The notes under the pieces are model-generated. The model saw nothing but the letters and a program-made list of their open reading frames with translations, was not told where the DNA came from and made no database searches. A stretch of DNA of 63,566 bases, filler included, from Platydemus manokwari (lineage: Eukaryota): assembly GCA_037951405.1 (NCBI GenBank). It is 6 parts of 6 records of this genome, joined end to end, with 100 filler letters (N's around TTAATTAATTAA, not from the genome) between each part and the next. Parts side by side here need not be neighbours in the genome. Positions count along the whole stretch, not along the records: positions 1 to 10,536 come from JBBMOY011126219.1; positions 10,637 to 24,247 come from JBBMOY011670291.1; positions 24,348 to 34,574 come from JBBMOY011156438.1; positions 34,675 to 44,194 come from JBBMOY011237653.1; 2 more parts are not named here. The stretch is one strand, 5' to 3'. The position numbers and the translations under genes are program-made. Below, piece by piece: positions 2,431 to 44,194 of this stretch (positions within the stretch are counted from its first letter, which is position 1; every line of letters begins with the position of its first letter).

Positions 2431-2444
2431 TTAAACAATACAAG

Positions 2445-3170
2445 ATGGTACCAGTAAAGAAGAAAGATGGTGAAGTACGACTATGTGTTGATTACAGAGA
2501 ATTAGATAAAAAGACGAAACAAGATGTTTTTCCTTCACCAAACACAGGGGAAATATTCGACAAGCTAAACTGAGTGAAATATTATAGGAAATTAGATGTT
2601 AATAAAAGATATCATCAAGAAAGTGAGAAATATGAAAGATAAAGAAGAAGGTATTGAGTTAGAAAAGGAAAACGCAGTAAAAGCAGGAAGTGTAATGAAG
2701 ATAAAATGGGAAGAAGCACAACGACAAGCATTTGAGACATTAAAAAAGAACTTGACACAAGCACCAATATTGAGATATCCGGATATGGAGAAATCATTTA
2801 TTATCATAACCGACGCAATTGGAGGAGCGTTAGAAGTTGTACTAAGACAACATGATGAAGGAGAATCAGTTCACGCTTTTGCATATACCAGCAAATCATT
2901 AAACGGAGCTGAAAAGAATTATTCAACAATAGAAATAGAAAGTTTAGCAATCATGTTCACATTAAATGAATTCAGTCGATATGTTTATGAAACAGAGATA
3001 ATATTGAAAACCGATCACAAACTCTTGGAAAGCTTAATGAAACATAGAAACACATCAAGCAGATAAATCAAATGGGCATTAAAATTAGAAGATCACAATA
3101 TGAAAATAGCTTACATAACGTGAAAATCCAACGCAAACGCAGATTCATTATCAAGAATACCAGACAATGA
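2445..3170 (+). mobile_element. Degenerate Ty3/Gypsy pol: RT N-terminal fragment plus RT-connection/RNase H
   Basis: 2445-2573 reads MVPVKKKDGEVRLCVDYRELDKKTKQDVFPSP (Gypsy RT start); ORF 2596-3066 WEEAQRQAFETLKKNLTQAPILRYPD...IITDA...AEKNYSTIEIESLAI...KTDHK, continuing through a frameshift and stop to KSNANADSLSRIP; central RT (YxDD) deleted. Confidence 0.93.
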
Positions 3171-4436
3171 AGAAAAATCAGTACTAAAAATAAATGCAAT
3201 AGATGCATTAAACAGTAATATCCATAAACCAAGAAGTGAGCAGAATATAAAAGAAATGAGGATGAAAGTAGTCAATTAAAGAGAATAAGAAGAAATATGT
3301 TAAGGAAACAAGCAGAAAATACTGCCAATGAATATTCATGTTACGTTTGGGGATTGCTAATTTTATTTCTATTAACCTTATCAGTCTCGAAAAATTATTT
3401 TATTGTTGTGAATCACTGTTGTCTCAATCAGTCCTTTGTAGTTCTGATCAAGCCCTACGTACGAACTATTGAAACTATTTATTTCTTTCATCGCCTTGCG
3501 TTTATTATTGTACGATGACAATGTCAAATGGCAACAATGATCAATGGTTATTTTGTGAACTACAATGATTTACCGAAAAATTATCAGTCTCAAAACAAAT
3601 TAACAAAGCAAATCAATAACAACGCTTGGGTTTTATAAAATGTTTATTGATACTGAAATTACACTAACACCAACTATAAATTACTAGGATATTCAAATGG
3701 CTAAATAAAATATACAATTATACGAAAATCCCTATCAAGCTTCAGGGTAAGTTACACAATTAATAAACCACACGCTCCTGCAGCAAAACCACCTTTCAAG
3801 GTTATGAGACAAAGCTCTATAATTGGAAATTTACACGAGTTTTATAATACCGATCAGTTGGTTAAATAACGATCGAACTTACTTTAACGGGCATATAATT
3901 GAATAAAGGCTTGGTACAATTCTTCTGACAAATATGGGTAGGATCGAATACGAGAAATATGTTTTTGTTATAGACGACGCACTTTACACAATCTTCCTAG
4001 TGGTTTCAAATCGGACGAAAGTTATGAAATTTTATCTCCTATTTATACGATTCGGGAAGAGAATTTAATCGTCACGGATTGTTGGCAAAATTGGATACAT
4101 CTAAATCTATTCCCCCGAGAATTACCATTTATTTTATAAGATAAAAATTCGCTGGTTGTTTTAGAAATATAAGTAATATAATATATTTAGATTTAATATC
4201 CCAAATTCTTTGAAAGTATTAAAATGGTTACTATTATTTTAACCGTGTAAAAATTATTATTGTTATAATAATAATTATTATTCTTTTTAACCAAATTATC
4301 ATGAAGATTTATAAAAAATTTAATTGAAAAATAAAACAAAAGATAACACTTGATTTATCAAGCTTGGCAAAAAAAATTACTGCTTGAATAATCAAGCCAA
4401 ATTGATACATTTTGATACAAATTGATACATTGAAAC

Positions 4437-4862
4437 CTATTAACAGTTATAACAGCAGCAACGAAACAACAATTATTATTAGTTTATTACTATGGAGCAT
4501 TAGGAGGACATTTATCAAAAAGGAAAACTTATGGGAAATGACGATAAAAGTTTTATTTGGATAATATGTTAAAGAATGTAGAGCAATTATGCAAGCAATG
4601 CACATTATGCGCAACAAGACGAAACACAGGAAGGAATAAGAAGATTTCACTTAAGCCAATACCACCAGCTACAAGATCAATGGAATTACGTGAAATGGAC
4701 CTCAGGGATTCGTTGCCAACAACTTTAAGAGAGAATAAATATATTATACTTTTTTGTGATTATTTCACCAGAATGAATGGAGCGTTTGACACTGAAAATC
4801 TTCAAGCTGAAACCATAACCAAGTTACTAATAGAAGAAATAATATTAAAATATAATAAATAA
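4437..4862 (+). mobile_element. Degenerate Gypsy integrase (HHCC zinc finger plus start of catalytic core), truncated
   Basis: YYYGALGGHLSKRKT...CKQCTLCATRRNT...LKPIPP...NKYIILFCDYFTR...QAETITKLLIEEIILKY, with stops. Confidence 0.9.
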
Positions 4863-4899
4863 CGAGAAGAATGGTTACCAACAAAAATATCAATACAGT

Positions 4900-5110
4900 G
4901 AAAAAGTCATAAAGGCAACAAAATCAATAATAGCATCAACAATGCTAATAATAGTAATGTTAATAGTAATAATATATTGCAAATGTGTATTAATTCACAG
5001 AAGAAAAAGGAGAATACGACTACACACAATACGGACAGCAGTAGCAGCACCTACTAATATAACTAGAGCAGTTGCAACAATACCTAAATTAGCAGTAGTA
5101 GCTTCAGCGC
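4900..5110 (+). pseudogene. Possible env C-terminal transmembrane anchor remnant
   Basis: STMLIIVMLIVIIYCKCVLIHRRKRR: hydrophobic span, then Cys, then a basic stop-transfer cluster, immediately 3' of the truncated integrase. Confidence 0.4.
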
Positions 5111-5519
5111 TATTAATATTAGTACCATCCGGTGAACGAAATTGCCATCAGTCACAGTTAAATTATTTACTAGAGGACGAGAAATTTGCCAAATTCATTA
5201 TAAAAGGCTATCCCGGAATGGTTCCTGTAATGGTTCCAGAATTTACCAAGAAGAATCTTCAAAATCAAAGTAACACAACATGTCAGCTTATTAGGAGACA
5301 GATGTTGGAAATAAATTTGGAAAGAAATGGTAACACATCAAATATGAGGAGGAAAAACGAACGGTTACAATGTTCTTGTAAAGAAAGTCAAAGCCAATAA
5401 AATGTATCGAGCACAAATAGCGATGGAAACATCAGCCAAGGAAATAGTAGTGCAAACCCTATATATAGAAGAAAGGGTTTATATCATGAGGGAAAGCCAA
5501 GGAATACAATTATGTAAAT

Positions 5520-5980
5520 AAAAATACAATGCCTTTTTTTGAACACAAAGTTTGCAACCGATTACAATGAAAACATCATCCCACATGGATGGGAATAATG
5601 GACTATAAGGGCAACATGCTCTTTAGTTCATATTTATGCTCTAGAGCGCGTTAAGCGATTAAGAATTGAGAGGCAAGTGAAAATGCATGAGCTGAAGAAG
5701 ACTTCAGCCATACTGGAGTGCGTTGATCGAAACCCAATAGTTCCAACAACATTATTCAGAGCACAAATTAATCAAAGAATTTGAAAGCTAATTCCACTAG
5801 ATGAAGAAATGAAGAAGACAATGGCTCCAAAAGGACATATGATCATATGATCCGGAAGCACCTGCGAGAGGAATACTACCCTACAGAGAAATTCAAAGAT
5901 GGTCAACTAAAGTCCACAAAAACCACAGAATCAGAAAGAAAGAAAAGGAAAAGGATAAGAAAAGAGGTCGAAGTAGAAAA
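5520..5980 (+). pseudogene. Degenerate DEDDh (REX4/ISG20-like) 3'-5' exonuclease domain, copy 1, in the retroelement 3' region
   Basis: Reading across frameshifts: FLNTKFATDYNE/KHHPTWMGIMDYKGNMLFSSYL. LNTKF is LDTEF (ExoI) after two G>A changes, and the KHHPxxxGxxDYKG block is shared with copy 2. Confidence 0.6.
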
Positions 5981-7403
5981 AGATCGTATAAAAAACTGCG
6001 GAGGAAAAAACGAGGAACTCATATCAGAAAGAAACAGAAAAAGACGAGGAAATTCTGGAGGATGTCTTAAGAATCGAGGAATCCCTTGACGAATGTGAGG
6101 AATGGATAAAGGGAGAGGAAAACTCACCAATGAATTTTTTCCGTTGCCAACGGCAAACGAAGATTCGCAGGCATATTAATTTGAAGAGAAAAGAAAATAT
6201 CAATATCCTGAAGTGAATCCAGACGTCGATCTGAATAGTCAAATCTGAATAGTCAATTTATACCCCTACAGCATATTAAAATAACTATGCGAAGCCCGGG
6301 AAAGTAACAATGAAGGGACAAGCCATCAATGAGTAAACAATAGCTACCATTGTAGAGGGGAAAATATTAACCATTACGTTAACAATAGCAATGGTACTGA
6401 CAGGTACCAACACCCACACACGTTGCGTATAGTGGGTTCCAGTCGAAAGTCTAAAGGTATAAGAAAAGATATGAAAATAGTTATTATTAAAATATTTTGT
6501 TATTTATAAGCAATAAATTGTTATTTACAAATCAATATACAAACAGTATAATGATGTGACTCATGATAAAGTATGAGTATAGTAAGCAAACTAAATTGGG
6601 GAAAATTAGAGAACGAGAACACAGAACTTAAAAATTTAATTATTAGGAATTTAGAAATGATGCAACTAAATGTAATAATAATAAAGTAGTGAAAATGCTG
6701 AATGTAAAGGTGATCTCGGCAATCAATGAGGACTGGAATCGCTCACAGAGATCATATCTTAAACCCAAAGTAAGAATCATGTCATATATCACTGGCACCA
6801 AAGTAAAAATTAATAAACCCGAATTTAATGCTTTTTATTTCAGGCACGGATATTAAACAAACCCAAAAGGCAACATACTCCAGCAGATTTTACAGAGGCC
6901 TGCAATAGTCCATAGCCAAGGAGACAACACATACAATAGGACTATGACAGTATACAAGGATAGAAAAGATACCCAATAAGCTAAAAGCCCCAACCAAGAA
7001 TAATAGAACCTTTATAATAGTACACATCCTAATTCAGGGAAGATTAAGACTTGGAGATTTACTACTAAATATCCCATTTGGGACACATAGAATTGGGATT
7101 CACGTCATATCACCTAGAATAACTTTAAAGTTACGGACGGAGGAACACGATGTAGAGTTCTTCTCCACATTAAAAGTCCGTCTGAAATTAGCCCAGAGAC
7201 CGACGTGGAAGGCCAGCACTCTAAAAATCCATCAGAGCTCAATAATTAGAGTCTTTGATTTGGCAGCAACATTTGCTGTGGAGCGGCAAATGGTGGCAGA
7301 AGAAGCATGGCTTGTAGATATCTCATAAACATCATAGAAACGGAAAAGCAATTGCCGTTACAGGCACTAAATAGAGGATTAAGTTTTTAAGGAGTTGATT
7401 GCA

Positions 7404-7945
7404 ATGTCAGAGGTGCGAAAGGTGATCATCTTTGTAGACTTGAAAACAGCAGAGGATTTCTTTGGAAAACATCACCCGGCTTGCGTAGGAGTGATAGATT
7501 ATAAAGGAAAGACCTTAATCGAATTTCGTATCTAACCGAAAGCCGAGATTAAGGAGTATAATACTAGGCAAAACGAATTGGCAGAAAGTAACTTAAGAGG
7601 ATAGGTTGATGAAGAATGGGCGTAAGTGAGGCTCGTGGAAGTATAGCGAGGGAAAATAATAGTGAGGCAGAGATTGAAGGAAACATTGGCAACCATAGGA
7701 GTACGGCTAAAAAGGATAATGGGAAAACTGGATTTAAATGACGCTTCCATCATAAATGAAAAATTAACCAACGAAAGATGGACATGGGTCCTTAAAAAGC
7801 AAGAATATCTGTATCAAGCAAGATATAGGGTATTTATTATAGAGTAATACGACAAGTGATGAAGAAAGAAGAAATACAAGACACCTTAGATAGTGCTAGA
7901 GAGATATATAAAAATGTGAAAGAAGAATGAAAGGACCACGAGAAG
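7404..7945 (+). pseudogene. Degenerate DEDDh (REX4/ISG20-like) 3'-5' exonuclease domain, copy 2
   Basis: One frame from 7404: VIIFVDLKTAEDFFGKHHPACVGVIDYKGKTLIEFRI*PKAEIKEYNTRQNELAESNLRG*...V*RGKIIVRQRLKETLATIGV; after a frameshift, EIQ...AREIYKNVKEE* (TGA where REX4 has W). Colinear with REX4 motifs (LDCEM; ARVSIVDY.G; KP...I.DYRT..SGI; GKILVGH.L..DL; LY..V..EW). Confidence 0.72.
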
Positions 7946-8749
7946 AATACGCAACAAAGAAGATGGCAAGAAAAGGTGTCGACATATGAAATACAAGAAA
8001 AAAGCAAAGCAAAAACCAACACCCATCATGGAATGGGCAGACCCACAGCCAGAACGCTGCTCATTGAAAAAGACGTGCAAAGAATCTGCAGACTCATACT
8101 GTTAGACGAAGGGGTGAAAGAGAAAGAAACAATGGAATCCAATAGATCATATAAGCATTTGATCAGATAGCATCTGGAGAAATACTTTCCTCTGGAGAAA
8201 TACCCTAGTAAAAGGAAGAGAGCAGAAGAAAAACAGACTATGAAGCAGCAGGTGGAGTGCATAACATGGATTTAAAAACTGATATCACAGATGGGTAAGA
8301 AGACCAGGACGATGACTTACAGGACTTGCTGAAATGGAGCTGTGAATATGTGGTAGCCGTTGCGATTAAAAAGGAGAGAATGGACGAAATAAAAGAAAAA
8401 TGGGATAACAAAGGAATACGGGAAAGATAAAAATAATTGATAAAAGATAAGGAATCCAAAAGCCAAAAGTGGATAGAGATGTTGGAGATAGAGGCAGCTG
8501 TAAAGGAATATAATAAATAGCTGCAAGAGTAATTATAAAAGAAGAAGAATCAAAAGTTGCAAGCCCGAAAGGAGAAGCAGCGTCCTTACTAGGAGAAGGG
8601 CAAGAGAGTGCCGGAATAAAAGAAACCAAAGCCTCGGGTTTAAAAATCAGAAAGGTATATGGGATATATCCCATCGTCAATACTCAGAAGAAATAAGGAA
8701 AAAGCAGAGAAAATCGAAGAAATTATTTAAAATCCACGTGGACGAGGCT

Positions 8750-9178
8750 TGTTACACCCCGAAATACTGTTGGGAACACCCACCCAGCGCTTACCAGTAT
8801 CCTTCCATTTTATACAATTTAGCCTTACCATCCCAGTTTATACAATTCATCCTCACATTGTTGATAAATAACACACATGTACCCTTTTACTGTAATACCC
8901 ATGTATAGCACACACCATGTATTATACGCATAACAATAGCGTATATAACCGTGTTTAATATATAGCCATGCATCACATACTCTAGCAAAATGGAAAGAAG
9001 AGCGCAAAGCAAAAGACAACATGATTACTGTGAACATAATGATTATTGCGTTAATAATAAACAATGAATTATGTGTTTTAAAGAGAATTGACAATACATG
9101 TGTTCTAAAGACAATTTATTATACGAAATAATTATATTTTATTATATTAATTATTTTTATATTGTGACAGTTGTAACG
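8750..9178 (+). repeat. Candidate 3' LTR of the contig-1 Gypsy element
   Basis: Begins TGTTAC where the purine-rich coding-like sequence ends, with a possible GTAAC(G) end at 9173-9178; no clear PPT or partner LTR in the window. Confidence 0.25.
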
Positions 9179-9779
9179 ATAAGAGTATTAATATGTGAAG
9201 TAATCATATCTGTGCTTGATTTTCATAATTTTTATATTTTTATATAAAAATCGGATGGACAAGAATTTCGGCAGATATAAAGAATAATAATATAACTTAA
9301 CAAAATAATAATATAGTAAAACAATATTATAAAATAATGAGATAAAGTAATAGTACAATAAAATAAAATAAAAACACTGCGATCAGTCAAAAAGGCGAAC
9401 CAGGAATATTACATAGAAAAATCATCACAGGCAAAAATCATCAGAAAAACATTACTCCAATAGAAAACGAGATAAATCATTTATTCAAAATAATTACAGT
9501 CGGATAAATGAAATATTGATCAATCAGTAGGTGTGGATATTTTTGTCAAATCACTTTGATCGGAGTAAGAGTCATTTATTTGGATTTGAATTAATCTTCA
9601 TCATATTCATTTTAAACATTTAAAAAATTAATTACACTTCGGCATCACTTACATTTGCAACAAGTGGTGTTCAACGCAGTTATAAGATCGCTTATATTTA
9701 ACAAGCTATATTCAACATCATTATAGTACTATTATTTTAATCTGCAGAAAGTTTTTGATTTATGCAATTTAAAATAAGG

Positions 9780-9978
9780 ACTTTTTCGTGTAATTTTTGT
9801 GTACAATAAGGACATTTATCATCTATCTATTTTTATTACAATCCTCACACATGTGATGTTTACAAAAAGTAAGCATAAATGTTTCCCCGTAACATATTAT
9901 ACATTTTTCAGAATTTTCTGATTTTTCAGTTTATCGTTTTCCATTTCCCTCAATAAATTTTAAATTATTTATCCTCAT
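9780..9978 (-). pseudogene. C3HC4 RING-finger gene remnant (stop plus frameshift), probably Polinton/virus-derived
   Basis: Minus strand from ATG 9978: MRINNLKFIEGNGKR*TEKSENSEKCIICYGETFMLTFCKHHMCEDCNKN/DDKCPYCTQKL = CxxC...CxH..CxxC...CPxC. Confidence 0.7.
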
Positions 9979-10006
9979 TTTTTATGGATTATTTTAAATT
10001 TAAAAA

Positions 10007-10536
10007 ATGAGTACAAATTATTTTTGTCAGATTTGTAAAAAAGAAATTTCTAAAAAGGCAAAACATGAAAAAACCAAATCTCATATGAATGGTACGAACA
10101 AAAGTAAGAATAATACGGGTATGAATTGTAAAAATAAAAGTAAGAAATTAAGAAATTTTGAATTTATTGGAGGTGACTCAACTAAGCTACCAACCGGAGG
10201 TGATATACGAGAAAAAATTACAAATAATCAGTTTTTAAATAAATTTAGTACTGGTTGTCATCCTGGAAAATTTCATTAAAAAAGTATGAATCCATTTAAT
10301 AAAACTAATCCTGTACATAATTATACAGTACCTGGAATGAATCTTCAAGAACATTTACAAAATTATAATCAGATTTTAAATAGTTATAATGAAACAGGAG
10401 ATTTGAATATTGTACCTATTCCAAAAGAAAATCATCAACCAGTAAATAGAATAGATGCCATAGCAATGCAACATGATGTTGATTATTTATCAAAAGATTT
10501 ACAAGATAGACATTTAGCCGATGTTAAAATGATACA
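10007..10536 (+). pseudogene. Parvovirus-VP1-type phospholipase A2 (Polinton/Maverick/adintovirus PLA2X-like) with an N-terminal C2H2-like finger; one in-frame stop; cut by contig end
   Basis: ORFs 10007-10279 and 10286-10536 are in the same frame; CQIC...H.....H finger; HNYTVPG resembles the YxGPG Ca-binding loop; PVNRIDAIAMQHDVDY...DLQDRHLAD matches the P.N.LD..A..HD..Y...R..AD catalytic motif. Confidence 0.82.
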
Positions 10537-10636
10537 NNNNNNNNNNNNNNNNNNNNNNNNNNNNNNNNNNNNNNNNNNNNTTAATTAATTAANNNNNNNN
10601 NNNNNNNNNNNNNNNNNNNNNNNNNNNNNNNNNNNN
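10537..10636. other. Artificial contig linker
   Basis: 44 N + TTAATTAATTAA (stops in all six frames) + 44 N. Confidence 0.97.
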
Positions 10637-10879
10637 ATATATAATCAATAGTTAATAATGTATTATTATTTATAGTATGCTATTAATATATTATCATAAT
10701 ATATTATTAATTATAATATATTGTTGCTTAAAAAGCTTTAATAGAAGATATATAATGCGGATAGTTAATCAATTACTGGGCCCTGGCATTTATTAAAATT
10801 ATAGAAAACTAAATTTGCTACTCTTGACAAAATAATCGATATCGTTTAGATAAATCTAAGGATGAGTTTTATCAAATAC

Positions 10880-12058
10880 CTTGATCACAAATTGTGCCAG
10901 TCCAACGGGCATAGCATTGGCAGTAAAATCCATCTTTTGATTTCAAGCATGTACCTTTTTTGCATGGATTAGGTACACACGGATCTGAAAACATATCCAA
11001 TGAAACTCGAACAACAAAGTATATATAATAAAGATACCTATCTCACAGTTCTCTCCACTGAATCCTGAAGGACAAATGCATTTGTATGGGTGAGTCTGAG
11101 ATGGAAGATTTTCACAAATTCCTCCATTCATACAAGGATTATTTCCAGCGCAATGATTGAGACCTGTCATTGGAAGACATTGTAAATTTTCACATCATTT
11201 TTAAATTTGATAATACTTTGATCACAGAAATGTCCACCCCAGTTACTTTCGCAATAACAAGTCCATGGGGAGTCCACACAAGATCCATGTTTGCAACCCG
11301 GATACTTAATACATTCATCACAATATGGACCTTTCCAACCTTCGCGGCAACTAAAGGAGAAGAATAACCACAAATATTACAATTCTAATGGATTTTGTTT
11401 TGTAACTTACACACATTCTCCAGGTTGCGGACAATATCCATGAACTCGGTGACATCCAGCTTTGCAGACAGCTACAGAATACAAATTAATTTTGTCTTAA
11501 AATACCTCAATCTAATATATTTCTTGTGTGTTGATACCTAATCAAAATTATCATAGACACCAAGACGTTTATGTTCTCAAAATCATGATTTACGAAAAAT
11601 CAATAATAGAAACTATATTAAGATGATAACCCTTTAAAAAATATAATATTCTTTGAAAAATAGCACGAAATAAAGTCGTCAGAAATATGATATCGTGATA
11701 TATGGCAGTTATGAAATATCTTATTAAATTGAAATATCTTACTGGTATTACAATCCAGGCCCATCCAGCCATGATCACAGATCTTGTCACCATTTTTATC
11801 ACATTTATAATGACCGGAATTAGGTTTGCAATATCTATCACAAGCTCCACCATAGTAATCTGCTTTACATACCAAATTGATACTGAATTGATAAACTGAT
11901 GGTCCATTCGGAATTAAAACGTCATGCCATTCAGGAGCATGTTTTCTTTCTATGGACGGTTTGAGAACGCTTTTGTAAACTACTCTATCAATTATTGCTC
12001 TGGAATATGGTCGTCTGTCTGCTGCATCGTATGCTTCAATGATCAATGTAATGTATCC
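10880..12058 (-). CDS. Ser: Serrate/Jagged-type Notch ligand, partial (MNNL C-terminus, DSL, EGF repeats); 5' exons unresolved, 3' end cut by contig end
   Basis: Phase-consistent GT-AG exons 12058-11743, 11471-11411, 11350-11217, 11163-11038, 10984-10880 give [11 protein letters not shown]...[113 protein letters not shown]...; [13 protein letters not shown] and NWGG favour Serrate/Jagged over Delta. Confidence 0.9.
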
Positions 12059-27210: not shown

Positions 27211-27505
27211 ATCTAATTTGGGCTAAAGTTAAAAAAGGGTCCTAAAATGATATTTTAAATTTGTTGAGTGTATTGCAAAATTATATATAGTTAGTTTTAA
27301 TTATATTCTTTAAAAACATTTTGGATTTTTATATTTAAGTAATTAAGAAGAATTTTAGTTGTTTGAAATCAAATATCAAAAAGACTAGAGCTTAAAAATC
27401 TCCTAAAATTTGATTATTTGAAAAAATTAAAAATATAGGTAGAATTGCAATTTATTGAAAATTTTCGAGGACCACTTTTTTAACATTAGAAGCAAATTGA
27501 GAGAT
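27211..27505 (+). mobile_element. MITE-like dispersed repeat, family B (~290 bp, ~30-bp imperfect TIRs)
   Basis: Left end AATTTGGGCTAAAGTTAAAAAAGGGTCCT vs right-end reverse complement AATTTGCTTCTAATGTTAAAAAAGTGGTCCT; body aligns with 63305-63520. Confidence 0.7.
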
Positions 27506-29579
27506 ATTCTCGATTTTTAAAATTATTTTATAAAAATAACCAATGATATTATTAAAAATATCTGTAATTAACTAACTCGATTAATAATTATAAAAATTTA
27601 AATTTAAAAACTCAAATAATAATATAGAAGTGCTGTGAATAGTATGGGAACATGGTTTTAAAACTGTTTTGTCACTATAAGACATTTTATAAAATGAGAT
27701 ATTAACTGATTTGTACGAATAAATCAAACATAGCAGTTATATAAAAAATAAAGTAGTTCAAAGGATCCTTTCTTCTTAACTTAAAACCTAATTTGAAATA
27801 CCTGTAGTTTTCTTTGTGATTGTAAAAAATATTGTAAAAAGTACATTAAAGACTCGTAATTCAAAATCAACTGCTGTTCAAAAATAAAATTCAGTTTAGC
27901 TTTGGAAATTATATCAAACGATAATTTTTCTATTACTAATAAACTTACATGTAAACAATAACATTGTATGATTGCAGTCATAACTGATAATATAATATTT
28001 ATAAATTTAAACAATGCTTGATATCAATTGATATTTCAGAAAAAAACAACCTCGTTCTGATTATTTATTTAAAATTTTAAATAATTATATAACAATTTTT
28101 TATTTCTAAGTTGATTTGCGAATCATTTTGATTGAAGAATAAATCGATTAATTACTATAATTATTTATTGTGAATAATTTATTTCGGTTTCACCAGAAGA
28201 TTTATAGCAAAAATTTTAGAAATTATAATCTGTTAAACCTAATAAAAAAAATTTGATTGACAAAATGAAGTATCTTTCGATACAAAACAAATATAAATTA
28301 TGTCATAGTGGCGATTATAGATGAATAATCTCTACTATACAAACTGTGTGGTAAGTTCATAACTCATCAATAGCATGCCACTCATTAAAATACTACAATT
28401 GAAATTTAAAATGCCGTAATCTGTAGGTTTGTTTGTCGGTAATGATAGAAAATATTTCATATAAAATGAAACACACAATCGCTTTAATATTTGCAATCTT
28501 TTTACATTCAAAACATGAAATGAGGATACCACAAAAATGAATCAAGTCACCGAAGATGTAAAGAAAACCTCTTAAAAAGTACAAGTCATTTCTTTGTGAT
28601 CATGTAGGTACTGCAACTAATTTCATCATCGAAGGCGTTGGAGAGGTTTGTGAAGGTATTGAAATAACCCTTGATTCAGTAGCGCTTAAAAAATTGAAAC
28701 AATATTAATGAGAATCCGAATTATTTTATGACTTAAATTCAGCTTTTAAACTTGCGATTTTTTATTATATAAATAAATTTTTTTCATTTCTGTTTTATTT
28801 ATATTATTAAAAAAATAAAAACTCAAACTTTAAAAAAAAATATTATAATTATCAATGTATTAATCAATATCGTGTTCTGTTAACTTTGATTATTTATCTA
28901 ATTATTATTTAAATCTTCCTAATGAGAGACATCCATTAATTTAATGCTTGCAATATCAATACACCACATAGTCCCATTTTAGTAAAATTAATTTACAAAT
29001 TTTTTTAAGGAAATTTCAGAACCATTTCAGCAAGATTAACGCATATAAAAGTATTTTTATAATTACGCACTAAAGCGAAATTGATTTTGTTTTGAAACTT
29101 AAGCCAAAGAAGCCTGTGTAAAAAAATGAATTATTTGAGGAAACATTGATAAATATATAGCTTCCCCAACTAAAAAATTTTCAACCTATTTTACGATTTC
29201 AATATAAAACCCCTAAATTTAAATATTAAACAAAATTTGGTATAACCTAACTATTACAAATTGAAAAATGTTTGAAATCAATGGGTGTATCTTTTGGTAA
29301 TAAGCAACTATCCGAATAGTCTACAGCTGAATTAGTGCTTCAATTTTCATGCCACAATGCCTTACATTTAATCAAAAGCATTTAGCCTAAAATCTTAAAT
29401 CTCTGTGTAATAAATGGTTACTAAATGTCCGATCAATCATTGATGATTCATTTAAAAATTTAGTTGTAATGGAAAATTCCCTTCAGTCATTATAGCACAA
29501 TGAAGTTTTTTCGGTTTAAATTTTAATTTATCGTGTATTATTAAATTTCAAAATATATTTTTATCGTATTTTGAATTAA

Positions 29580-30049: not shown

Positions 30050-32280
30050 GTCATACAGAACTATGAGGTATAAGGCCACACTTACAAAAATCTAAACAAT
30101 TGAACTGGGACATAAAGGCCATGTTTTAAAAAAAAACACTTCGAAGCTCAGTACTTTCCTAACAATGTTCATTACAAATGGTACAGATTGCAAATGGAAC
30201 AGGTTCAGAAAGCTTATCTAACAAAATAGTTAGAAGAGATTACCATCACATTCGAAGCTAATCCAATCACTTTCACTCTAGTGGATGCGACTATTATAAG
30301 TCAGAACCAATTGAGAATATCCTAACGAAATTATATGGTCAATAATTCAAATGAACCAAAGCTAATGAATATTCGGCTAAATCGACATTAAGTATATCCG
30401 ATTGTCAACCCTTGAAATGATTCAAGAATCATAAATTCCCCAATATTAAATCAAAAAGAAATTTAACATATTATACCAATCAATGTAGATATTATAGGAA
30501 TAAACTGAAATAAATTATCAATTTTAAGAAAAATCAACTTGTATTTCAGTCATCTTAAAAGCTGCAGTAAAAGTAGCTGAATCTGCACCCTTCACCATCA
30601 CAAGACAAGACGGAAATGAAAATGAAGAAATCCTTTCTGAACCTAATTGAAACTTCAAGGATATGACAAACATTCCAATTAGCGCAATGCTTTGCGATAA
30701 TCATTAATAGTCAAATACCAATACTGGTTATTAATCACATCAATGAACCCATTAAAATAAAAGAACGTTCAAGCATGTGTCAATGAGCTTACAGAACCCT
30801 TGTTACATCAGAAGATAAAGTAGAAAGACAATTACATGAATTACTCTATCAGAGAAGTGTAGTATTAATCCAATACCTCTGACGCTCAAATATAATCACG
30901 TTGAAGAAAAATAAGTAAGAAGAAGACCATGCAATGACTATCAAAAAGTAAACGAAATAACAAAATTTATTAACTTTTCATTGTTAAATACATATCAAGC
31001 CAGGTACCAGGGGCTCTAATTTTCTCGACTCTTGATTTAATCAATGCCAATCACTGCATTTACAACTGGAAAAAATTGTTATAATGGACACTAATGCCAC
31101 GTATCTAAATTTCATTGAATTACCAAATACCATAGTATACTGAGATGATATTATTATTTTCTCAACCAATTATAACACATTTCTTGAAGACTTAGCACAA
31201 GTATTTGAATGAATAGGACAAATAAAGAAGTAAAATACCTGTCGAAAAAACCAGATAAAACATATATAGAAAACGTGGCAAATTTTCCGTCATCAAAAAG
31301 TAAGAATCAAGTTCAATAATTTTTAAGTTTAACAATATACTTTAGGAAGTTTACACAAAATTGGGCAAGAATCTCCACATAGCTAACTACGTTACTACAA
31401 AAGTTAAACCATTATTTGGTAGGCGGGACGAGAAAAGGTGTGCCAGATCATTTAAAAAATTCAAGTCAAGAACCAATGTTTAGACATCTAATCCTTAAAA
31501 TATCATGTTTAATAACGACAGATGGCAGTAGCTACACCATTGGAGTAGTACTACTACAAAGGTGCTGGCTATCGATGCGGAAAATAAGAAATATTATTGG
31601 AGAACATTAAAGGAGAAGTAAGAAAATGGGGCGAATCGTGTCAAGCATGTCAACCAATGAAAAATACGGGAAGTATATATGGAATACCACTTAAACCAAT
31701 GATAACATCTTCCACATCAATGCAAATGATATCCGTGGACATTGTAGGACCTTTGTCTTTCATAAACAATGGAATAATAGTCATTTGCGATCGTCTTACA
31801 ACATAGCTTGAACCTAATCCAATAGCCAGTACAATTTTTAAAGTCTATATTGATTAAATAATATTCAGACATAGAGTACCAAAGTGTTTTATCACAGATA
31901 GAGGAATCGATTTCCTTAGTAACGAGGTATCGAGAATAGATAATAATTTGCAAATAACTAAATTGAACACCTTTTCATACTAGCCGCAAACTGGTGGACT
32001 AGTAAAACTAACGAAAAACTACTTAATATACTTTCATCATACACCAATAAGGCATACAACTATTCGTTCTTACATTCCATCATACTTGTTGACATATCAG
32101 AACTTCAAAATGTACTTCTTTCTGTCTAATGAATCTACGAGATAACAACTTGCCAATATATCTCAATATATGGATATCGAATATTATGCATTATGAATGA
32201 AAGAAAGATTAGCCAACGCATTTTAAATAGCCAAACACAATGTCAAATACAAACAGGAACAATTTACGAAATATTATGAT
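30050..32280 (+). mobile_element. Highly degenerate Ty3/Gypsy pol (PR-RT-RH-IN)
   Basis: VQIANG (protease-like); RPCNDYQKVNEIT and FSTLDL; IVY*DDIIIFS at 31132-31164; ITTDGSSYTIGVVLLQ; SCQACQ...PLKPM...ISVDIVGPL; TDRG and PQTGGLV. Confidence 0.88.
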
Positions 32281-33080
32281 AAATATCCAAATAATCAATT
32301 TATTAGAAACAATTTTATAATAACTTTCCTTTGGGTCATAATTTTTCATAATTTTCATTACTGTTATCAGTGAGTAATAAACCTTGTATTTGTAAATTAA
32401 TTCATTTTATTTCACTGAAAATCCTGATAATATACCTAAAATGTAGCATGTACTACCAGGTCGTTAAAAATTACAACAATTTCAAATCATTTCTTTTGAT
32501 TAAAGTTTTATTATCTTTTCCATGGATATTATTACACATATTACATATAATAACTATCATAACATTTTAAGAAATTGTTTAAATATTGTGTAAAAACGTG
32601 AATTAAATTTAAAATACATTAATTTGATTTCCATTTAATATTACTCATAAAATTGAAAGTAAAAAGCAAAATTTCATTAAAAACCTTCTATTAACAACAA
32701 ACAAATTCTTGTAGTCAACGGTGATTTGTACTTTTTTTCAAAAAAAAGCAAATTATAAAAGAAAAGATTTTAATCTAATAAAATTATGTGGTATTATAGC
32801 TGTCTAAATCTACAATCACAACCAGAGAAAGTGAGACTGTTTTTGATCACAACCGCGTAATGAGCAAGGATGTAATAACATATCATTTACTGAAGAGACC
32901 CCTCTAAATTACCGTCTTTTGCTAATAAAAAATTAGTAATATGTAAAAAGCCTATTGGTATATCAATTACTTCTAGACACTGAATTAAATGCACTATTGT
33001 GGTTGAAGCATCAACAACCCTATTTCAAATTGCTTTGGCACATGTATTTGCATAATTTCACCTGAGCCGATTATCCAGTT

Positions 33081-33875
33081 TCATGGTTTAACGATTCGAG
33101 TTCTATTTTTGCTAAAAGTTGTATTTGGTGAATTCTGTTTGATAATTTCATCGATGGTGTTGCTGGGACTTTTTGGCAATATTAATAACAGACCGGCAAC
33201 GATGATAGTACTTAGAAACATCCAGAAAAATATTCGATCTAAAACTAGTGCAACAGTTCGCCATTCCCCTGCTCGTTTGTTTGCATTGTCGATATCGGCC
33301 ATTCGACTCATTAGGGTTCTGATGCTTTTCCGTATTTCTGCAACATCGGTTTCTAATGTTTGAGAAAACTTTAGAATCGTTCTTTCCAATTGTGGTGTGA
33401 CATTTGACGAAGAATTCCCATTTTCGACATGATTAGAGAAATTGAAATCATTCTCATCATCTTGAGTGATGATTATTCTGTTATTTTCTAGACAGTACTT
33501 GATGCTACCTGTTTTATTGTTGCTATAAAATGGATACGGATCGGGATTGTTTTCATTAATTGATGAGTAGTTGATTGGATTTCTTGTCTTAATGGTTTCC
33601 TGTTTTGGAGAATTGAGAAATTGAGAATTGATTTCGCCAGAACTCGAAGCAAAATTAATCGAATGATGATCAACATTCTTATTCAACATACGATGATTGA
33701 TATCGGAATATTGATCAAATCTGTTGATGTTTTGATCAGATCCGAATTTGAATCCGACTTTCTTGCAGAATTTTCTATTGTATTTGATCTCCGATTTTAT
33801 GATTTTGATTTTTTCATTTTTTTCAATGATATTCGATGTATCCATGAAGAGTATAAACCCGATTTTTACGATTAT
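33081..33875 (-). CDS. Nicotinic acetylcholine receptor (Cys-loop LGIC) subunit, terminal exon: M3-M4 loop, M4 and C-tail
   Basis: Acceptor ttatttacag at 33885-33876; MA helix and GEWRTVALVLDRIFFWMFLSTIIVAGLLLIL (EW..VA.VLDR..F M4 signature); upstream exons not found before the contig end. Confidence 0.9.
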   Translation of the reverse strand: MIVKIGFILFMDTSNIIEKNEKIKIIKSEIKYNRKFCKKVGFKFGSDQNINRFDQYSDINHRMLNKNVDHHSINFASSSGEINSQFLNSPKQETIKTRNPINYSSINENNPDPYPFYSNNKTGSIKYCLENNRIIITQDDENDFNFSNHVENGNSSSNVTPQLERTILKFSQTLETDVAEIRKSIRTLMSRMADIDNANKRAGEWRTVALVLDRIFFWMFLSTIIVAGLLLILPKSPSNTIDEIIKQNSPNTTFSKNRTRIVKP

Positions 33876-34574
33876 CTGTAAATAAGTCATTTTATTTGAC
33901 CTATTTCTAATTTTAGTTTCAAGAAATCGAATAATTTCACAAACTTCGCTTAATTCTTAAATTTAAAAATATCGATAAATTATTTTTGTGCATGACCCTT
34001 CTTGATAATGTATAACAGTAATTTATGTCGATGAAATATTTAATTAAATTAGTAATAAAATAAAAGAACAAATATATTTTGTGCGAGATAAAGACACTTC
34101 ATGTGAGATACTTTTAAATCAATGAAAATATGATGCCTTTTTTACAGCATTATTAATATATTTATTATTAATATATAAAGTATTATCAAGTCCACAAAAT
34201 TACAAAGAAGCTCAATCGAGATGAATTTGAATTACAAAGCAAAGAATCGGTCATTCACATTTTAATATTAAAGATTTTATTCAATCCAATTTATCAGTAA
34301 AAACATCAAAATAAAAATAAAATTTTTAAAGATTTACAGATTCTCCATTTCAATAAATATTTTAAAAATCATCGAAAAATAACATGATGTGATAAACGTG
34401 AACGAAAAGAAAAGATGCGAATTTTGATCATTCATTTTACTACTAATTATTTTACTAATCAATTTATTTTACTACTGATTTTAAATGAAATTTTAACCAA
34501 TAAAATCTATGCCAAGACAATTGATTTTGAAGAAAACTATTAATCGATGTTTCTGTAATAAAATAATATGTAAT

Positions 34575-34674
34575 NNNNNNNNNNNNNNNNNNNNNNNNNN
34601 NNNNNNNNNNNNNNNNNNTTAATTAATTAANNNNNNNNNNNNNNNNNNNNNNNNNNNNNNNNNNNNNNNNNNNN
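34575..34674. other. Artificial contig linker
   Basis: 44N-TTAATTAATTAA-44N. Confidence 0.97.
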
Positions 34675-34679
34675 TATTG

Positions 34680-34717
<38 letters not shown>

Positions 34718-34780
34718 ATTATTATTATTATTATTATTACTATTGTTATTACTATTATTATTGGCATTATTATTATTACT
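34675..34780. repeat. (TAT)n microsatellite at contig start
   Basis: Long TTA run. Confidence 0.9.
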
Positions 34781-38616: not shown

Positions 38617-39470
38617 TCAGCATTGCATAACCGGTGCAGAAATCTGCGAAACCAGCTCATCACCGCCGATTTTCGCGAAAGACGAAGCACCTCGTTTCAA
38701 GAAAACCACATCTTTCTCTGACAATTTCTTCCCATTAATCGGATCGATCATTGTTTGTTTGACCAGATTGTTGTATGCTGCTTCTGTGATGATTGAACTG
38801 CTCGATCGCAAAGCAACGAGAGCAGTGGCATTGGTGAGAATATCACCGGTGACGGCGCATTTATATTTGGCTTGATCATCGGGATTGGAAAATTTTGTGA
38901 ATTGAATGGAGAAAAGATCTTTGTAACGCAATGGTTCTTTCGTTACTGGACATCGAACCAGTGTATCGGGTTTGGTGACTTTGTCCTTTTTCGATGATGG
39001 GGCACCGGAATTCGACCAGAAACAACGATCTTCTATGATTTTCTCTTCAACACTCAATTTGCCCACTGAGTTTGTTTCGATAAATTTCCTATAATAAAAA
39101 AAAATAATACATTGATTGTGAGAATAAAACGGCACTTTAATTTAATTTCATTTTTTTCTTTTAAAAATTTCTCTGCATCTTCAACTTCTTTCAATTTTTG
39201 ATTATCGTATTCCTTCATTTTCATATCGATGATATTTCTTTGTTCAAGAATGTATTCCAACACAGCCGTTCTATCAAATAAAACGCCGCGTTTGGATACA
39301 AGAAGATCATCGCTTGGTTGTAAAGTAATGCAACAACAATCAAATTGATAGCCTGATTCAGCACCTAATCTTCGTTTACGAGATCCATATCCTGATTTTT
39401 CACTATCCTTCTTTTTTTCATGATAGGTATATGTAGAGTGAGCCGTAGCATTTTTTGAATGTCTTGTCAT
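38617..39470 (-). CDS. NOSIP: Nitric oxide synthase-interacting protein (U-box/RING-like E3, spliceosome factor), 268 aa, 2 exons
   Basis: MTRHSKNATAHSTYTYHEKKKD...GYG...FDCCCITLQP...LFDRTAVLEYI; exons 39470-39136 and 39088-38617 with a 47-bp GT-AG intron (807 nt, in frame); C-terminal CPVT..PL..KDL, CAVTGDILTN, LKRGASSFA. Confidence 0.95.
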
Positions 39471-39987
39471 TGGTATATTTAAGATGTGAGCTTACGTTTT
39501 GCTTGATACAAGAAATTAAATTTAAATAACTTTAGATAAATTTGAAATAACCCAATTATCAAAAGATATTATTTAAACAATTATTTTCATCAATCAATTA
39601 CGTTAAATGAAATGACATAAAATGAAAATAAGGAAATTAATGTAGAGTTTTAATAAAAATATTAAAATGTTGTTTTTTTTATTATAAATAAGTCAACAAA
39701 AATGCACTAAAATAAATTATTATATATTAGAGTACTGTAAAAATTTACATAGATTAAATAATTAAATTTCATTTACTTCTTTTAATATATGGTATTTTTT
39801 AAAAAATTAAAGTTTTCCTGATTTATACATTGAATTAGGATCCAATGATCTATTTCTGTTTTTATCTATCGTGGTAAATATTTTTCAGAGTCGAAAGTTA
39901 TCTTAAATTGTAGATTAATATAAATAAAAGAAAGATAAGACATTATTATAAAAGCAATTACAATTATGTTTATACTTGTTGATATTT

Positions 39988-40514
39988 TGAGGGTCCACAA
40001 CTTCGATCTATTTCATCAAATAAAGATAAATACCAATAAATTAAATAAACACTTTACTGGGTTATGTATGAATAAATTGGTTTCATGATTTTGCTGTGTT
40101 GAGTGCGATGAAATTCCGCAAAAAGAAAAACGAATTTGCACCTTGGAACCCTTGTTTTGGCACTCTGAACATTTGCATGCCTGCACGAGCATACAGGCAT
40201 GATAATCGGCCAATCACAGCGAAGTTAGATAGTAAATTGCAATCAGGAAAAAGGACATAATTACTCAAAACACATATCTAGGGATTAACCAATCCCATTC
40301 ATGTAGAAACCTAAAAACTCAAAAAGAACACAGAAAGACAAACAACCAAATCAAATTGTAGTAGAACATGACACAGAGAAATACACACAGACCACAAGTA
40401 TAAAAACCAATGTAAAGACGGACAACTGCAAGTTAGAAGCCAGATTTTTGTGAAAATATTTTGATTATCGTGATTGCACATCAGTTATTTTAGTTGTATA
40501 TTGATTAATGTACA
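39988..40514 (+). repeat. Candidate 5' LTR of the contig-4 Gypsy element
   Basis: Ends ...TGTACA at 40514, followed by PBS-like TGGTGAGCCC (40520-40529) and then gag; TATAAAAA near 40399; left boundary uncertain. Confidence 0.45.
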
Positions 40515-40551
40515 TTATTTGGTGAGCCCTTATTCGAACATTTTTACGATT

Positions 40552-41110
40552 ATGCATTCAGAGAACCAATCTTCTTCAGGCCAACAGCCAATTCAACACC
40601 AGATACGACTGGTTCCCCAAGCTGATTTTGCTAGTTGCCTAAAGCTTCCTATCGAACAGCATGGTGGAGACCCAGTTGACTTCGTGGATTTTATGACAGA
40701 CTATTTTATGTACTCATCTGTATAAGGTTGGACTGAAAGGACAATGATCCAAAGACCTCCTCTTTATTTGAAAGGCGCAGCAAGAGAAGCCTACAACCAA
40801 ATCGATAGACGAAACATTGGCCAATGGACAGCAATGAAAAAAGCCTTATCACAGAAGCTAATCAGCGGAGACGCTGGCCGCATTATTCGTCAAAAATCCT
40901 TCTCCAAATCGCAGAAAACTAGTGAAACAGTAAGCGATTTTGCGTATACTTTGCAGAAACAGCATTAGGACCAAAATCGCAGTGGCCAACACAAACGCGA
41001 AATGTGATTGAAGATCAATTTTCGAAAGGAATGCATCAACACATCAGCACAGTGCTCAGCTCGTTGACTATACCACCTACGATGAACTCATCGAAAAAGT
41101 TATGAGGGTG
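40552..41110 (+). mobile_element. Degenerate Gypsy gag (capsid)
   Basis: GGDPVDFVDFMTDY...*GWT...LYLKGAAREAY...W..MKKAL...QKTSETVSDFAYTL (retrotransposon gag with an MHR-like QxxxE.V..F motif). Confidence 0.85.
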
Positions 41111-41406
41111 TAAATAAATTCCACATCGATAATTCGTTAGCCTGCCACATATGCCACAGAAACAGATCTCTCTTTTATGGGTAAAATTGATGATCAATTC
41201 AAAGTTAATTTAACAGAATCTGAATCACAAAATCAATGGGAATCAGAAATATCGATGATGAAAAATAAACTGGAACGATGGATCGAGAGGCTAGGAGGTG
41301 AAGAAGGGCTTAATTTAATGATCAAATCAAATAGATTGTTGAGATGGAGAAATGAAGATTATGTTAGTAGTAGTGAGAATATTGATGACGATGAGAGTAT
41401 TAAAAA

Positions 41407-42564
41407 ATGAGGAGTTGGAAAATAAAACTGGAGACTTGTATGATACGTTTTGACGAAATTTCGAGAATAGTTTGGAATACTTTGACGGACAGCCGTAAAC
41501 TTTCTAATTTAGAAAATGAATTATGTTTGGTTATGTCATCGCAGCTTTTGAGGAGTAAACCTATTAATTCAGAATTTATGAAGGTAATGACAGAAATGTA
41601 AGATTTTATGGCAGTTACTTGTAAAGGAAAAGATTTTGAGATTTTTGTTGAAAAGTGGTTAGGAGATTTGATTAAAGTAAAGCTAAATTCTTTTTCGAGA
41701 GTTCGAGATATTAGAAGCCAGATTGTCGGAGGAGATGCCCCGCTTAGGGGTTTGAATCAAATTCTATGTGATGATGATTATGTTATGATTTATGGCATCG
41801 TGCCAGAAAACGATATTGTTGTGAAAATGGAAAAAGGATGTATAGGAGAATGGAGAAACTCTGCTGATATGTTAACACAGGTGAGTATACTTTTAAAAGA
41901 AGAGGCTTTGAATTTTAGCGAAATAGTGAAAAATTTGGAAATTATCAAGTAAAACATATAAATGTTTCATAATTTGAGTGAGTTAATATATTTGTAAGTA
42001 CCGTATATAGAACAATATTTACGTATTAATTCTACTTTCAGAAGTATTTTCACGTTGTGTGGAAAAATGTGGAAAAAAAAAGGCTTAAGTCTACCTCCTT
42101 TTGAGATCAGTTTAATGAAATTAGGAGTTGAAATAGAAAATTTCAAAGAGCATTGGTTTACAAAAGTAAAGAGAATCAGAAGAAGGATTTCAGAAAAGTT
42201 GATAAACGATGCAGTTATTATCTTATCATATTGTGGTCAAAATTTTGATGACGATGAATATTTGTTGAATTATGGATGTGTTACTGGAAAAGCGAATAAA
42301 ATTAACGTTGAAGTTCATTACGAGCAAGGCATTATAAATGAAAATGTAGAATATGAACGAGCCAATTTGCATAAAAATGATGTTACGTACGACATTCAAG
42401 AGGCAACATTTAACTTACCATTTTATCAAGATTTGGATTCTTATAATAATAATTATATTAATAATGATGCATACGTTGTTATTAAAATAGAAAATATGGA
42501 ATTTAATGAAATTGAATTAATAAATTATAAAAGTCGAATATATTTCATGAAATCAAAAAAATAA
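41407..42564 (+). pseudogene. Accessory ORF with two ubiquitin-like domains (~41635-41829, ~42100-42315), interrupted by in-frame stops
   Basis: ORFs 41407, 41608 and 42055 share one frame. FEIFVEKWLGDLIKVKLNSFSRVRDIRSQI...LRGLNQILCDDDYVMIYGIVPENDIVV and FEISLMKLG...FTKVKRIRRRISEKL...LSYCGQNFDDDEYLLNYGCVTG...INVEV follow the ubiquitin pattern IFV..L.G..I...V..IK.KI...L.F.G..L.D...L.DY.I. Confidence 0.62.
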
Positions 42565-42603
42565 GAAAAGTAAAATATTAAGAAGTGGAATGTTATCCTT
42601 TAA

Positions 42604-42796
42604 CATTTAACAATTTTTATGATGATGATAATTATATTTGGCTTCGGTAACGAAGTTAGAAACTTAATTGCATACGATAGCTCTAAAACAGAGATGGGAA
42701 AAATTTATTAATTAATGGATATAACGGAATGCCCAGAAGCATATCCGATGAAAATCTCTAGTGGCAAAAATGAGCATTATTTTCTACATCAGGAAG
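42604..42796 (+). pseudogene. Env-like glycoprotein N-terminal remnant (signal peptide plus AYD[C] motif)
   Basis: IFMMMIIIFGFGNEVRNLIAYDSSKTEMGKIY*LMDITECPEAYP...LHQE, in the same frame as the UBL ORF; resembles the LxAYDC...YSL.DV.EC...Q start of chuvirus-like/class III retroelement glycoproteins. Confidence 0.5.
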
Positions 42797-44194
42797 CTAT
42801 AGGAAATTTATACAAAATTTCTTGCATATTGCTCATCCTATTAACACACTACTTAAAAAATGCAACATTTCAATGGTTAGAACAGAAACAAAAAGCTTTT
42901 AAATTACACAAACAAAAATTAACTACTAATTCCATAATACGACATCCAGATATGAAGAAACCCTTTACTGTAAGGACATATGCTAGCGGGTTTGCTATTG
43001 GTGCTGTATTGGGACAGCATGATGATGGCGTTAAGGATCACGTTATTGAATACTCTAGCAGGGCTTTGAAAAAATACAAAAAAATTATTCAACTATAGAA
43101 AAAGAAGCATTAGCAATTATTTTCTCAGTAGTACACTTTCGACAATATTTACTAGGACATAAAATTATATTATATACAAATCATAACCACATAAAATGGC
43201 TTATGAATCACAGAGATGTTGCTAGTAGACTAATTAGATGGCTCATGACACTCCAACAGTATGATATTGAAATTAGATATAGATCTGGAAAATCAAATGC
43301 AAACGCAGATACACTATCGAGAATTAAGGAAGATGAAATTGCCTATAGAAAAACCTCTTTTACTATTTTAATGGCAGCAAGAGACGCTACGTACATGAAT
43401 AAATTTAAAGATGATCAAGAAAATGATAGTGAAATTAAACGAATTAAAACATCATTGGAAAAACGAGTTTGTAGTGTAGACCCAAAGCAATTAATACAGC
43501 TTGGATACTTTATACATAAGAGTTTATTAAAATATTATACTGGTAAGGGCATATTATTAGTAGTACCTGAAAAACATAAACATATTTTACTCATGCAGTA
43601 CCACGACGGCGCATTAGGAGGTCATTTGTCCCCTAGAAAGACATTATCTAATCTAAAATCAAAAAAATATTATTGGATTACAATGGAACAGAATGTTAGG
43701 TCCTGGTGTAGATCTTTCAAAATATGCACAATCAGACGAAATACTTGAGTACGGCCTAAAGCAATATTGACACCCATGCCAGTATCTTCTGCACCAAAGG
43801 TAATGGCAGCCATGGAGATAGTTGGACCATTTCCGGAAACTATAAATGGCAATAAATATATTTTTGTATTTTGCGATTACTTGACAAAATGGCCTGAGAC
43901 CTCCGCAATTAAAAATCAAAAGGCAGAAACAGTCGCTAATGTGTTTATAGAAAATATTGTTTTTCGATTAGAGACCCTTAAGAAAATATTAACTGACTGT
44001 GGTACTTACTTTCTTAGCGTACTATTCAAATCCATAATGGATCTTTTTGGAATTTTGAAACTAAACACATCACCGTATCATCCACGAATAGATAGACTGG
44101 TGGAGAGATTCAATGGTACTTAAATAAATATGCTGTCATCATATACTGGAAGAACTCAGTGAGATTTGGACCTGTATATCAACCCTTGCTTAAA
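42797..44194 (+). mobile_element. Degenerate Ty3/Gypsy pol: RT thumb, RNase H, integrase; cut by contig end
   Basis: YRKFIQNF at 42798; FQW...QKAF; ASGFAIGAVLGQ; NYSTIEKEALA; SRLIRW...GKSNANADTLSR; YHDGALGGH; IVGPFPET.NGNKYIFVFCDYLTKWPE; ILTDCGT; TSPYHPRIDRLVERFNGT. Confidence 0.95.

Follow-up and report, generated by a model that had tools for sequence, protein, structure and literature searches.

We analyzed a 63,566-nucleotide stretch of the Platydemus manokwari genome (GenBank assembly GCA_037951405.1), here called the window, which consists of six contigs joined by artificial N44-12 bp-N44 spacers and has the low GC content (about 27%) of AT-rich animal DNA with animal host genes. Contigs 1, 3, and 4 carry broken copies of Ty3/Gypsy retroelements. 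The explanation that best accounts for those on contigs 1 and 4, and one we consider probable, is that they are dead, deleted members of a Burro-like enveloped Ty3/Gypsy clade. We have high confidence in the clade and its layout, as judged from sequence comparison, and we put forward the functional steps discussed below, taken jointly, as tentative. A previous reading of the window (the sequence-only reading) had proposed one clade of large, env-bearing Gypsy elements with variable accessory genes and had noted that the copies are not physically linked, which is correct because the spacers part the contigs.

Gypsy pol remnants were found in all three contigs by Pfam matches and by alignment to relatives. 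The contig 1 and contig 4 remnants are 42.1% identical over 278 aligned columns (66% over 249 bp at the nucleotide level), and they are nearer to the clade described below (median identity, 47% and 49%, respectively) than to outside sequences (29% and 31%). Six strings had been listed as shared by these two copies; five (PDM.K.F, QHD.G, KSNANAD.LSRI, GALGGHLS.RKT, and RRNT) matched as written, and LM.HR..SR needed three wildcards to match. Elsewhere in the window, RRNT turns up at three unrelated places. Loosened versions of LM.HR, KSNANAD, LGGHLS, and RRNT were present in 10 to 15 of 16 clade members and in none of 39 outside sequences, P..K.F was less specific (10/16 versus 5/39), and QHD.G occurred in neither set. 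We regard the shared strings as diagnostic of the clade, on a test that is partly circular because the patterns were loosened only after the clade had been seen.

A search with the contig 4 RNase H (RH)-integrase (IN) frame returned 130 matches among 1,972 candidates. Twelve homologues stood apart, with 117 to 326 bits versus at most 106 bits for the others listed, and the metagenome contigs L012 to L017 were 49 to 52% identical to one of these 12. We built a FastTree phylogeny of 557 columns from 55 of 79 eligible references plus the three window copies, leaving out P0003 and L011 as duplicates and P0005 and P0012 as too short. The window copies grouped with 16 relatives at a Shimodaira-Hasegawa (SH) support of 0.998. 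We ran 100 FastTree bootstraps with 32 of the 58 rows. Of these, 97 recovered contigs 1 and 4 together with 15 relatives, 64 recovered the same group with contig 3 added, and all 100 paired contig 4 with P0001. The proposal of one clade therefore holds firmly for contigs 1 and 4 and weakly for contig 3. This RH/IN phylogeny had been suggested with named Burro and GyDB/Repbase sequences included, which were not among the rows. Two outcomes had been set beforehand as refuting the proposal, namely, placement of the pol fragments in distant clades and full-length relatives lacking env, exonuclease, and ubiquitin-like (UBL) open reading frames (ORFs); we observed neither. No clade members were found in IMG/VR, where the best matches were 24 to 30% identical. 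A GTDB search gave one locus, the P0002 contig, which is probably animal DNA inside a bacterial metagenome-assembled genome (MAG). L011, in its whole length a clade member, sits in a bacterial MAG record and is probably animal DNA contaminating the bin.

The intact relatives define the layout. P0121 (3,735 amino acids [aa]) and L016 (3,703 aa) are single-frame polyproteins that begin with Gag and a pair of zinc knuckles. UBL domains come next, then a helical domain, a signal peptide, and a chuvirus/gB-type Env (PF24664), which is followed by two protease (PR)-like domains, reverse transcriptase (RT), RH, IN, a second signal-like segment, an ectodomain, and a transmembrane (TM) anchor. L014 (at least 3,426 aa) has the same layout from the UBL onward. 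Env matches PF24664 at E values of 1e-83 to 1e-94 in these three relatives, lies upstream of PR in the same frame, and is open and full length in all three of the relatives whose single frame extends far enough upstream to include it. In each of the 12 relatives examined for it, a C-terminal TM segment lies after IN, and the longest relative locus is 16.6 kb. The PR-RT-RH-IN order that is a hallmark of Ty3/Gypsy elements is complete in the relatives, and RT-RH-IN is present in the window. Scanning the non-gag/pol domains of the full-length relatives, as had been advised, revealed env, UBL, and exonuclease, and P0121, L014, and L016 bear out the claim of large env-bearing Gypsy elements. The UBL and exonuclease of the window copies were recognized through these intact relatives, and a Pfam scan of the window copies gave no direct match to either.

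The contig 4 copy (Table 1) follows the order of P0121, with gag, UBL, and the N terminus of env and then a jump to the end of RT. About 1,330 codons are deleted after the Env start, and the alignment covers P0121 residues 1276 to 1336 and then 2669 onward. The Env N terminus proposed for this contig was confirmed by its PF24664 match, by 37% identity to P0121 (E 9e-8), and by a profile match (independent E value [iE], 1e-10), which places a gB/chuvirus-type env between gag and RT. A site resembling a primer-binding site (TGG) lies at 40520, the inferred long terminal repeat (LTR) is about 0.4 kb long, and no second LTR was found on contig 4. Among the UBL domains proposed for contig 4, the one at 42097 to 42330 was verified; its model matched ubiquitin, NEDD8, ISG15, and SUMO in Foldseek (E of about 1e-4; TM-scores, 0.65 to 0.72), and the terminal di-glycine is absent from the alignment. 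A second stretch, at 41638 to 41820, is suggestive of an additional UBL domain in profile and alignment comparisons, and a PDB search with it gave no match. A third candidate, at 41129 to 41449, was seen by eye only. An exonuclease could not show in this copy because the contig ends inside IN. We used summed contig depth in a single run, X1, which may be the source sample; this depth is not a copy number. It ranged from 511 to 19,638 across the whole contig 4 element, UBL included, and from 11 to 52 in the flank, which suggests that the family is multicopy.

The contig 1 copy retains a different part. Internal deletions removed most of RT after its N-terminal fragment and IN beyond the N-terminal part of its core. 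An X1 contig joins position 3183 directly to 4467, without the insertion nested between RH and IN; within that insertion, 3850 to 4200 looked Copia-integrase-like by eye and had no Pfam match. The TM segment after IN had been called env type. Its collinear position and its better fit to the post-integrase anchor profile than to the env anchor profile, a comparison with a small search space to which hydrophobic composition may contribute, indicate that it most likely anchors the post-integrase membrane protein and not Env. An env profile search of contig 1 found nothing (best iE, 0.4), and we rejected the env assignment. No gag was detected by profile search in contig 1 or 3. Of the exonucleases reported for contig 1, one is clear, the decayed ORF at 6951 to 7796, which matched L014 (E 2e-10), L016 (6e-9), and L013 (3e-4) by tblastn and has stops and lost catalytic residues. 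The other, at about 5500 to 5650, is weak; 10 of 17 residues are identical to the second copy (tblastx E 7e-5), and it matched L013 at an E value of 0.006. As a homologue query, the decayed exonuclease gave no match in a search that took in longer proteins only. A single X1 contig spans 4604 to 8848 and ties IN to the exonuclease, and the depth of the 3' region (19 to 47) suggests that it is low copy.

Contig 3 had been described as carrying similar pol sequence at 30050 to 32280. It does hold a Gypsy pol remnant, 30 to 34% identical to the contig 1 and contig 4 copies; the loosened strings were absent from it, and no env was detected by profile search. Sequence comparison places contig 3 in the same clade weakly.

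Table 1. Features of the window and of two related loci
Sequence	Feature	Position	Strand	Evidence or remark
Contig 1	RT N-terminal fragment	2433..2618	+	43% to P0121 residues 2471-2528, E 3e-9
Contig 1	RNase H region, stops present	2701..3171	+	PF17919 E 9e-29; 52% to P0121
Contig 1	Unrelated nested insertion between RH and IN, outside element	3184..4466	.	70% nucleotide identity to contig 2 16397-16790
Contig 1	Integrase zinc finger and N-terminal core part	4440..4856	+	PF17921 E 4e-10; 43-49% to clade members
Contig 1	TM anchor	4927..5019	+	iE 0.002 with post-integrase anchor profile and 1.2 with that of env (small search space); collinear position
Contig 1	Possible first exonuclease remnant, frameshifted, weak	5494..5651	+	Collinear profile pieces iE 0.13, 0.17
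Contig 1	Decayed exonuclease ORF, N-terminal extension and DEDDh domain	6951..7796	+	Profile iE 1e-24
Contig 3	Heavily decayed RT/RH/IN remnant	31105..32283	+	29-40% to clade, 20-33% to outside sequences
Contig 4	Inferred 5' LTR, begins TG	40096..40530	+	Depth climbs from ~16 into the thousands; 134 loose ends ahead of 40121; boundaries inferred
Contig 4	Gag capsid remnant	40645..40959	+	PF03732 E 6e-4; 28% to P0121, E 7e-11; profile iE 3e-17
Contig 4	Possible additional UBL domain	41638..41820	+	Profile pieces iE 0.17, 0.19; alignment
Contig 4	UBL (beta-grasp) domain	42097..42330	+	39% to P0121; model pLDDT 84.6; alignment
Contig 4	Signal peptide plus initial ~60 residues of Env, chuvirus/gB type	42604..42798	+	PF24664 E 0.017, profile positions 4-76
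Contig 4	RT thumb, RNase H, integrase; broken	42787..44194	+	PF17917, PF17921, PF00665; 68% to P0001
L013	Polyprotein with extra protease-like domains, ankyrins	3-7106		Ankyrin E 1e-10
L015	Polyprotein with extra protease-like domains, ankyrins	1-6660		Ankyrin by alignment
Window	Delta/Serrate ligand gene	10946-12058	-	Pfam
Window	Ligand-gated ion channel gene	33084-33956	-	Pfam
Window	NOSIP gene	38620-39470	-	~0.6 kb from inferred start of contig 4 element
Window	Rhodopsin-type G-protein-coupled receptor gene	61945-62919	-	Pfam
Window	~180-bp dispersed repeat, both orientations	15635-15817, 17153-17268, 49446-49626, 52367-52560, 52851-53027		72-89% alike
Window	Shared repeats	23955-24247 / 27459-27755; 27206-27436 / 63294-63520		80-83% alike

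The presence of exonucleases on one contig and of UBL and env on another had suggested interchangeable modules. We rejected this idea because L016 carries all of these parts, as does L014. Contigs 1 and 4 are differently deleted copies that preserve different halves of one layout, and what sets the window copies apart is which parts were deleted or cut off by contig ends. Cargo does vary in the clade: L013 and L015 have ankyrin repeats and an extra protease between IN and the membrane protein, L014 and P0009 have a second membrane module before PR, L013 has a separate UBL ORF (iE 7e-5), and there are one or two exonucleases. In addition, L016 has a 222-aa ORF at 11375 to 12040, between the polyprotein and the exonuclease ORF, with no Pfam match. 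The out-of-clade Gypsy element L024 has a separate baculovirus-F-type env ORF after pol (3993 to 6125).

One or two exonuclease ORFs lie downstream of the polyprotein in five of seven in-clade loci, and the sequence of the other two loci runs out no more than about 1 kb beyond it. The exonuclease profile, which matches in-clade loci by construction, matched none of 47 other loci. PF00929 was matched by four of seven exonuclease ORFs (E 1.5e-11 to 1e-3), the best PDB matches were SDN1, ISG20L2, and ISG20, and the D-x-E, D, H...D catalytic set on an RNase T fold is kept in five of the seven; the other two, like the window copy, have lost residues. From these matches, the ORFs likely encode ISG20/REXO4-type, RNA-trimming DEDDh exonucleases.

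We modeled the ectodomain of the L016 post-integrase membrane protein from a four-sequence alignment (pLDDT 71, pTM 0.41) and obtained two beta-sandwiches that matched tandem fibronectin type III (FN3) domains (Foldseek E 1e-7). A single FN3 domain superposed with a VIA Z of 9.4 and a root mean square deviation of 2.5 over 81 residues, and TM-scores of the whole model to FN3 tandems were low, about 0.3. A tandem FN3 fold is thus predicted for this protein. An Atlas search gave no result with the exonuclease region and no usable match with the FN3 region.

Burro of Schmidtea mediterranea encodes Gag-CCHC-Ubi/SUMO-BCL2-Env-PR-RT-RH-IN plus ankyrins in one ORF of 4,873 to 5,140 aa, and cargo varies among Burro elements, as given in the cited part of a review (PMC6431247). 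Our relatives share with the Burro/GYPSM1 elements of that account the giant ORF, Gag, CCHC knuckles, a Ubi/SUMO-like domain, in-frame env, and PR-RT-RH-IN, as well as ankyrins in some members, accessory ORFs, and many copies. P0121 and L016 are single polyproteins of this type, with which the broken window copy is collinear. The link to Burro made in the sequence-only reading is therefore supported through layout: env sits in the frame shared by gag and pol, between the two, and the UBL is upstream of env. GAG-ENV-POL elements with a gB-type Env have also been described in nematodes, bryozoans, and flatworms, six of them, Smed_errantivirus 1 to 6 (1 to 215 copies), from S. mediterranea; these share the Ty3/gypsy Pol and the gB/chuvirus-type env upstream of pol (PMC13524379, main text). 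P0121 and L016 contain six short env motifs of the Smed_errantivirus elements in the same order, and L014 contains five of them; the env comparison was otherwise by eye. Gene order alone gives no membership because GAG-ENV-POL elements are not monophyletic according to that text. In the bdelloid rotifer elements Vesta and Juno, a 3'-5' DEDD exonuclease ORF3 likewise lies downstream of a Gypsy-type pol; the rotifer enzymes are DEDDy (RNase D-like) and mostly in elements without env, whereas those in our clade are DEDDh (ISG20/REXO4/SDN1-like), often paired, and in env-bearing elements (PMC5408684, cited part). The gag-UBL-env-pol layout is thus already published for Burro, and the Schmidtea errantiviruses are likewise on record. 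Within this otherwise known layout, the FN3 protein and the DEDDh exonuclease ORFs are the parts for which we found no published description, in a comparison outside of which lie the original Burro paper and Repbase.

Several observations weigh against the Burro-like, enveloped reading. No Burro or GyDB/Repbase Pol was in the tree, so layout and a by-eye comparison of env motifs are what tie it to Burro, and contig 3 has the weak bootstrap placement given above. We found no env in the Pol ORFs of P0009 and P0010 and no C-terminal anchor in P0006, which limits the demonstrated one-ORF layout to part of the clade. L017 has a short, different ectodomain that does not look like FN3, and the FN3 ectodomain is deleted in the window copies. 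No LTR pair was found in L012 to L017, loci that may be incomplete. A BCL2-like helical domain was undetected in contig 4 by profile search, and in P0121 and L014, the helical domain, which contains a GGW string, matched Bcl-2 only at an E value of 1.8 and had no Pfam match. The best matches of the neighboring NOSIP gene were 52% identical and of mixed taxa. We call the clade Burro-like, and not Burro, because of this Bcl-2 value and because Burro's giant size (>30 kb; ORF1 of about 4,900 to 5,100 aa [PMC6431247, cited part]) is not reached by the complete polyproteins.

The copies could be plain Burro or Schmidtea errantivirus members whose FN3 and exonuclease ORFs are already annotated elsewhere, so that nothing here is new. 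The shared gag-UBL-env-pol order and ankyrins (PMC6431247, cited part), the GAG-ENV-POL order of Smed_errantivirus 1 to 6 (1 to 215 copies), and the matching env motifs fit this account. However, the cited part of the Burro review names no exonuclease or FN3 membrane protein, the words ubiquitin, exonuclease, and fibronectin do not occur in the main text of PMC13524379, the polyproteins here are shorter (3,400 to 3,700 aa versus 4,873 to 5,140 aa), and Pfam found no MATH or BIR domains in P0121, L014, and L016; we consider it unlikely. We give somewhat more room, while still doubting it, to the proposal that Env and the FN3 protein make no infectious particles, that replication is intracellular, and that the additional domains either came down as cargo or have a part in membrane anchoring and RNA processing and not in defense. 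The loss of catalytic residues in two of seven exonucleases agrees with this, as does the rotifer case, where DEDDy ORFs have no clear link to copy number and their activity is undemonstrated (PMC5408684, cited part). Against it, Env has stayed open and full length in all three informative relatives despite Pol divergence to about 68% identity, and five of seven exonucleases retain the catalytic set. We think it very improbable that unrelated nested repeats came together by chance to form the window pieces and that the shared strings are generic Gypsy motifs. Contig 1 does contain a true nested insertion and the copies are only 42% identical, but they are collinear with intact single-ORF relatives, the motifs were absent from the 39 outside sequences, one X1 contig joins IN to the exonuclease, and the UBL region has family-level depth. 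We rejected a mosaic for contigs 1 and 4; contig 3 could still be one.

The intact relatives likely work as Burro-like enveloped retroelements, for which we propose the following mechanism. Going by established polyprotein topology, internal signal peptides would thread the polyprotein through the endoplasmic reticulum (ER) membrane, so that the Env and FN3 ectodomains would face the ER lumen and Gag and PR-RT-RH-IN would stay cytosolic. Signal peptidase and the element's own protease would free the parts. Env might then fuse membranes while the FN3 protein handles attachment, so that the element could pass from cell to cell within its host. Active DEDDh copies could trim by-products of replication, either RNA or single-stranded DNA, and degenerate copies could bind RNA. 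The UBL, which lacks the di-glycine, would be an interaction or decoy module and not a conjugated modifier. The elements may be infectious, as the sequence-only reading suggested, and the anti-defense role that it also proposed may be one option among several.

The host genes and other repeats of the window are listed in Table 1. A phospholipase A2-like stretch at 10209 to 10536 (plus strand; PF08398 E 1e-3) has a summed depth of about 65,000 and is a very high-copy repeat, perhaps of parvovirus or Polinton-type origin. A NOSIP exon used as a homologue query gave no match in a search restricted to longer proteins.

As dead fossils, the window copies are in themselves unremarkable. The layout is known, and its accessory parts are poorly annotated. 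A bolder idea, which we hold to be a long shot, is that a lineage of invertebrate endogenous retroviruses has a two-part entry system, with a gB-type fusogen and its own FN3 attachment protein, both cut from the Gag-Pol polyprotein, together with paired active and inactive ISG20-like exonucleases against host RNA silencing. This would make it an infectious, complex retrovirus from beyond the vertebrates and insects. If the gB-type fusogen has the FN3 protein as its attachment partner and the DEDDh enzymes work, a retrotransposon would have acquired both an accessory enzyme that degrades RNA and a sharing of entry tasks like that of herpesviruses, which would bear on the infectivity of non-insect env-bearing Gypsy elements.

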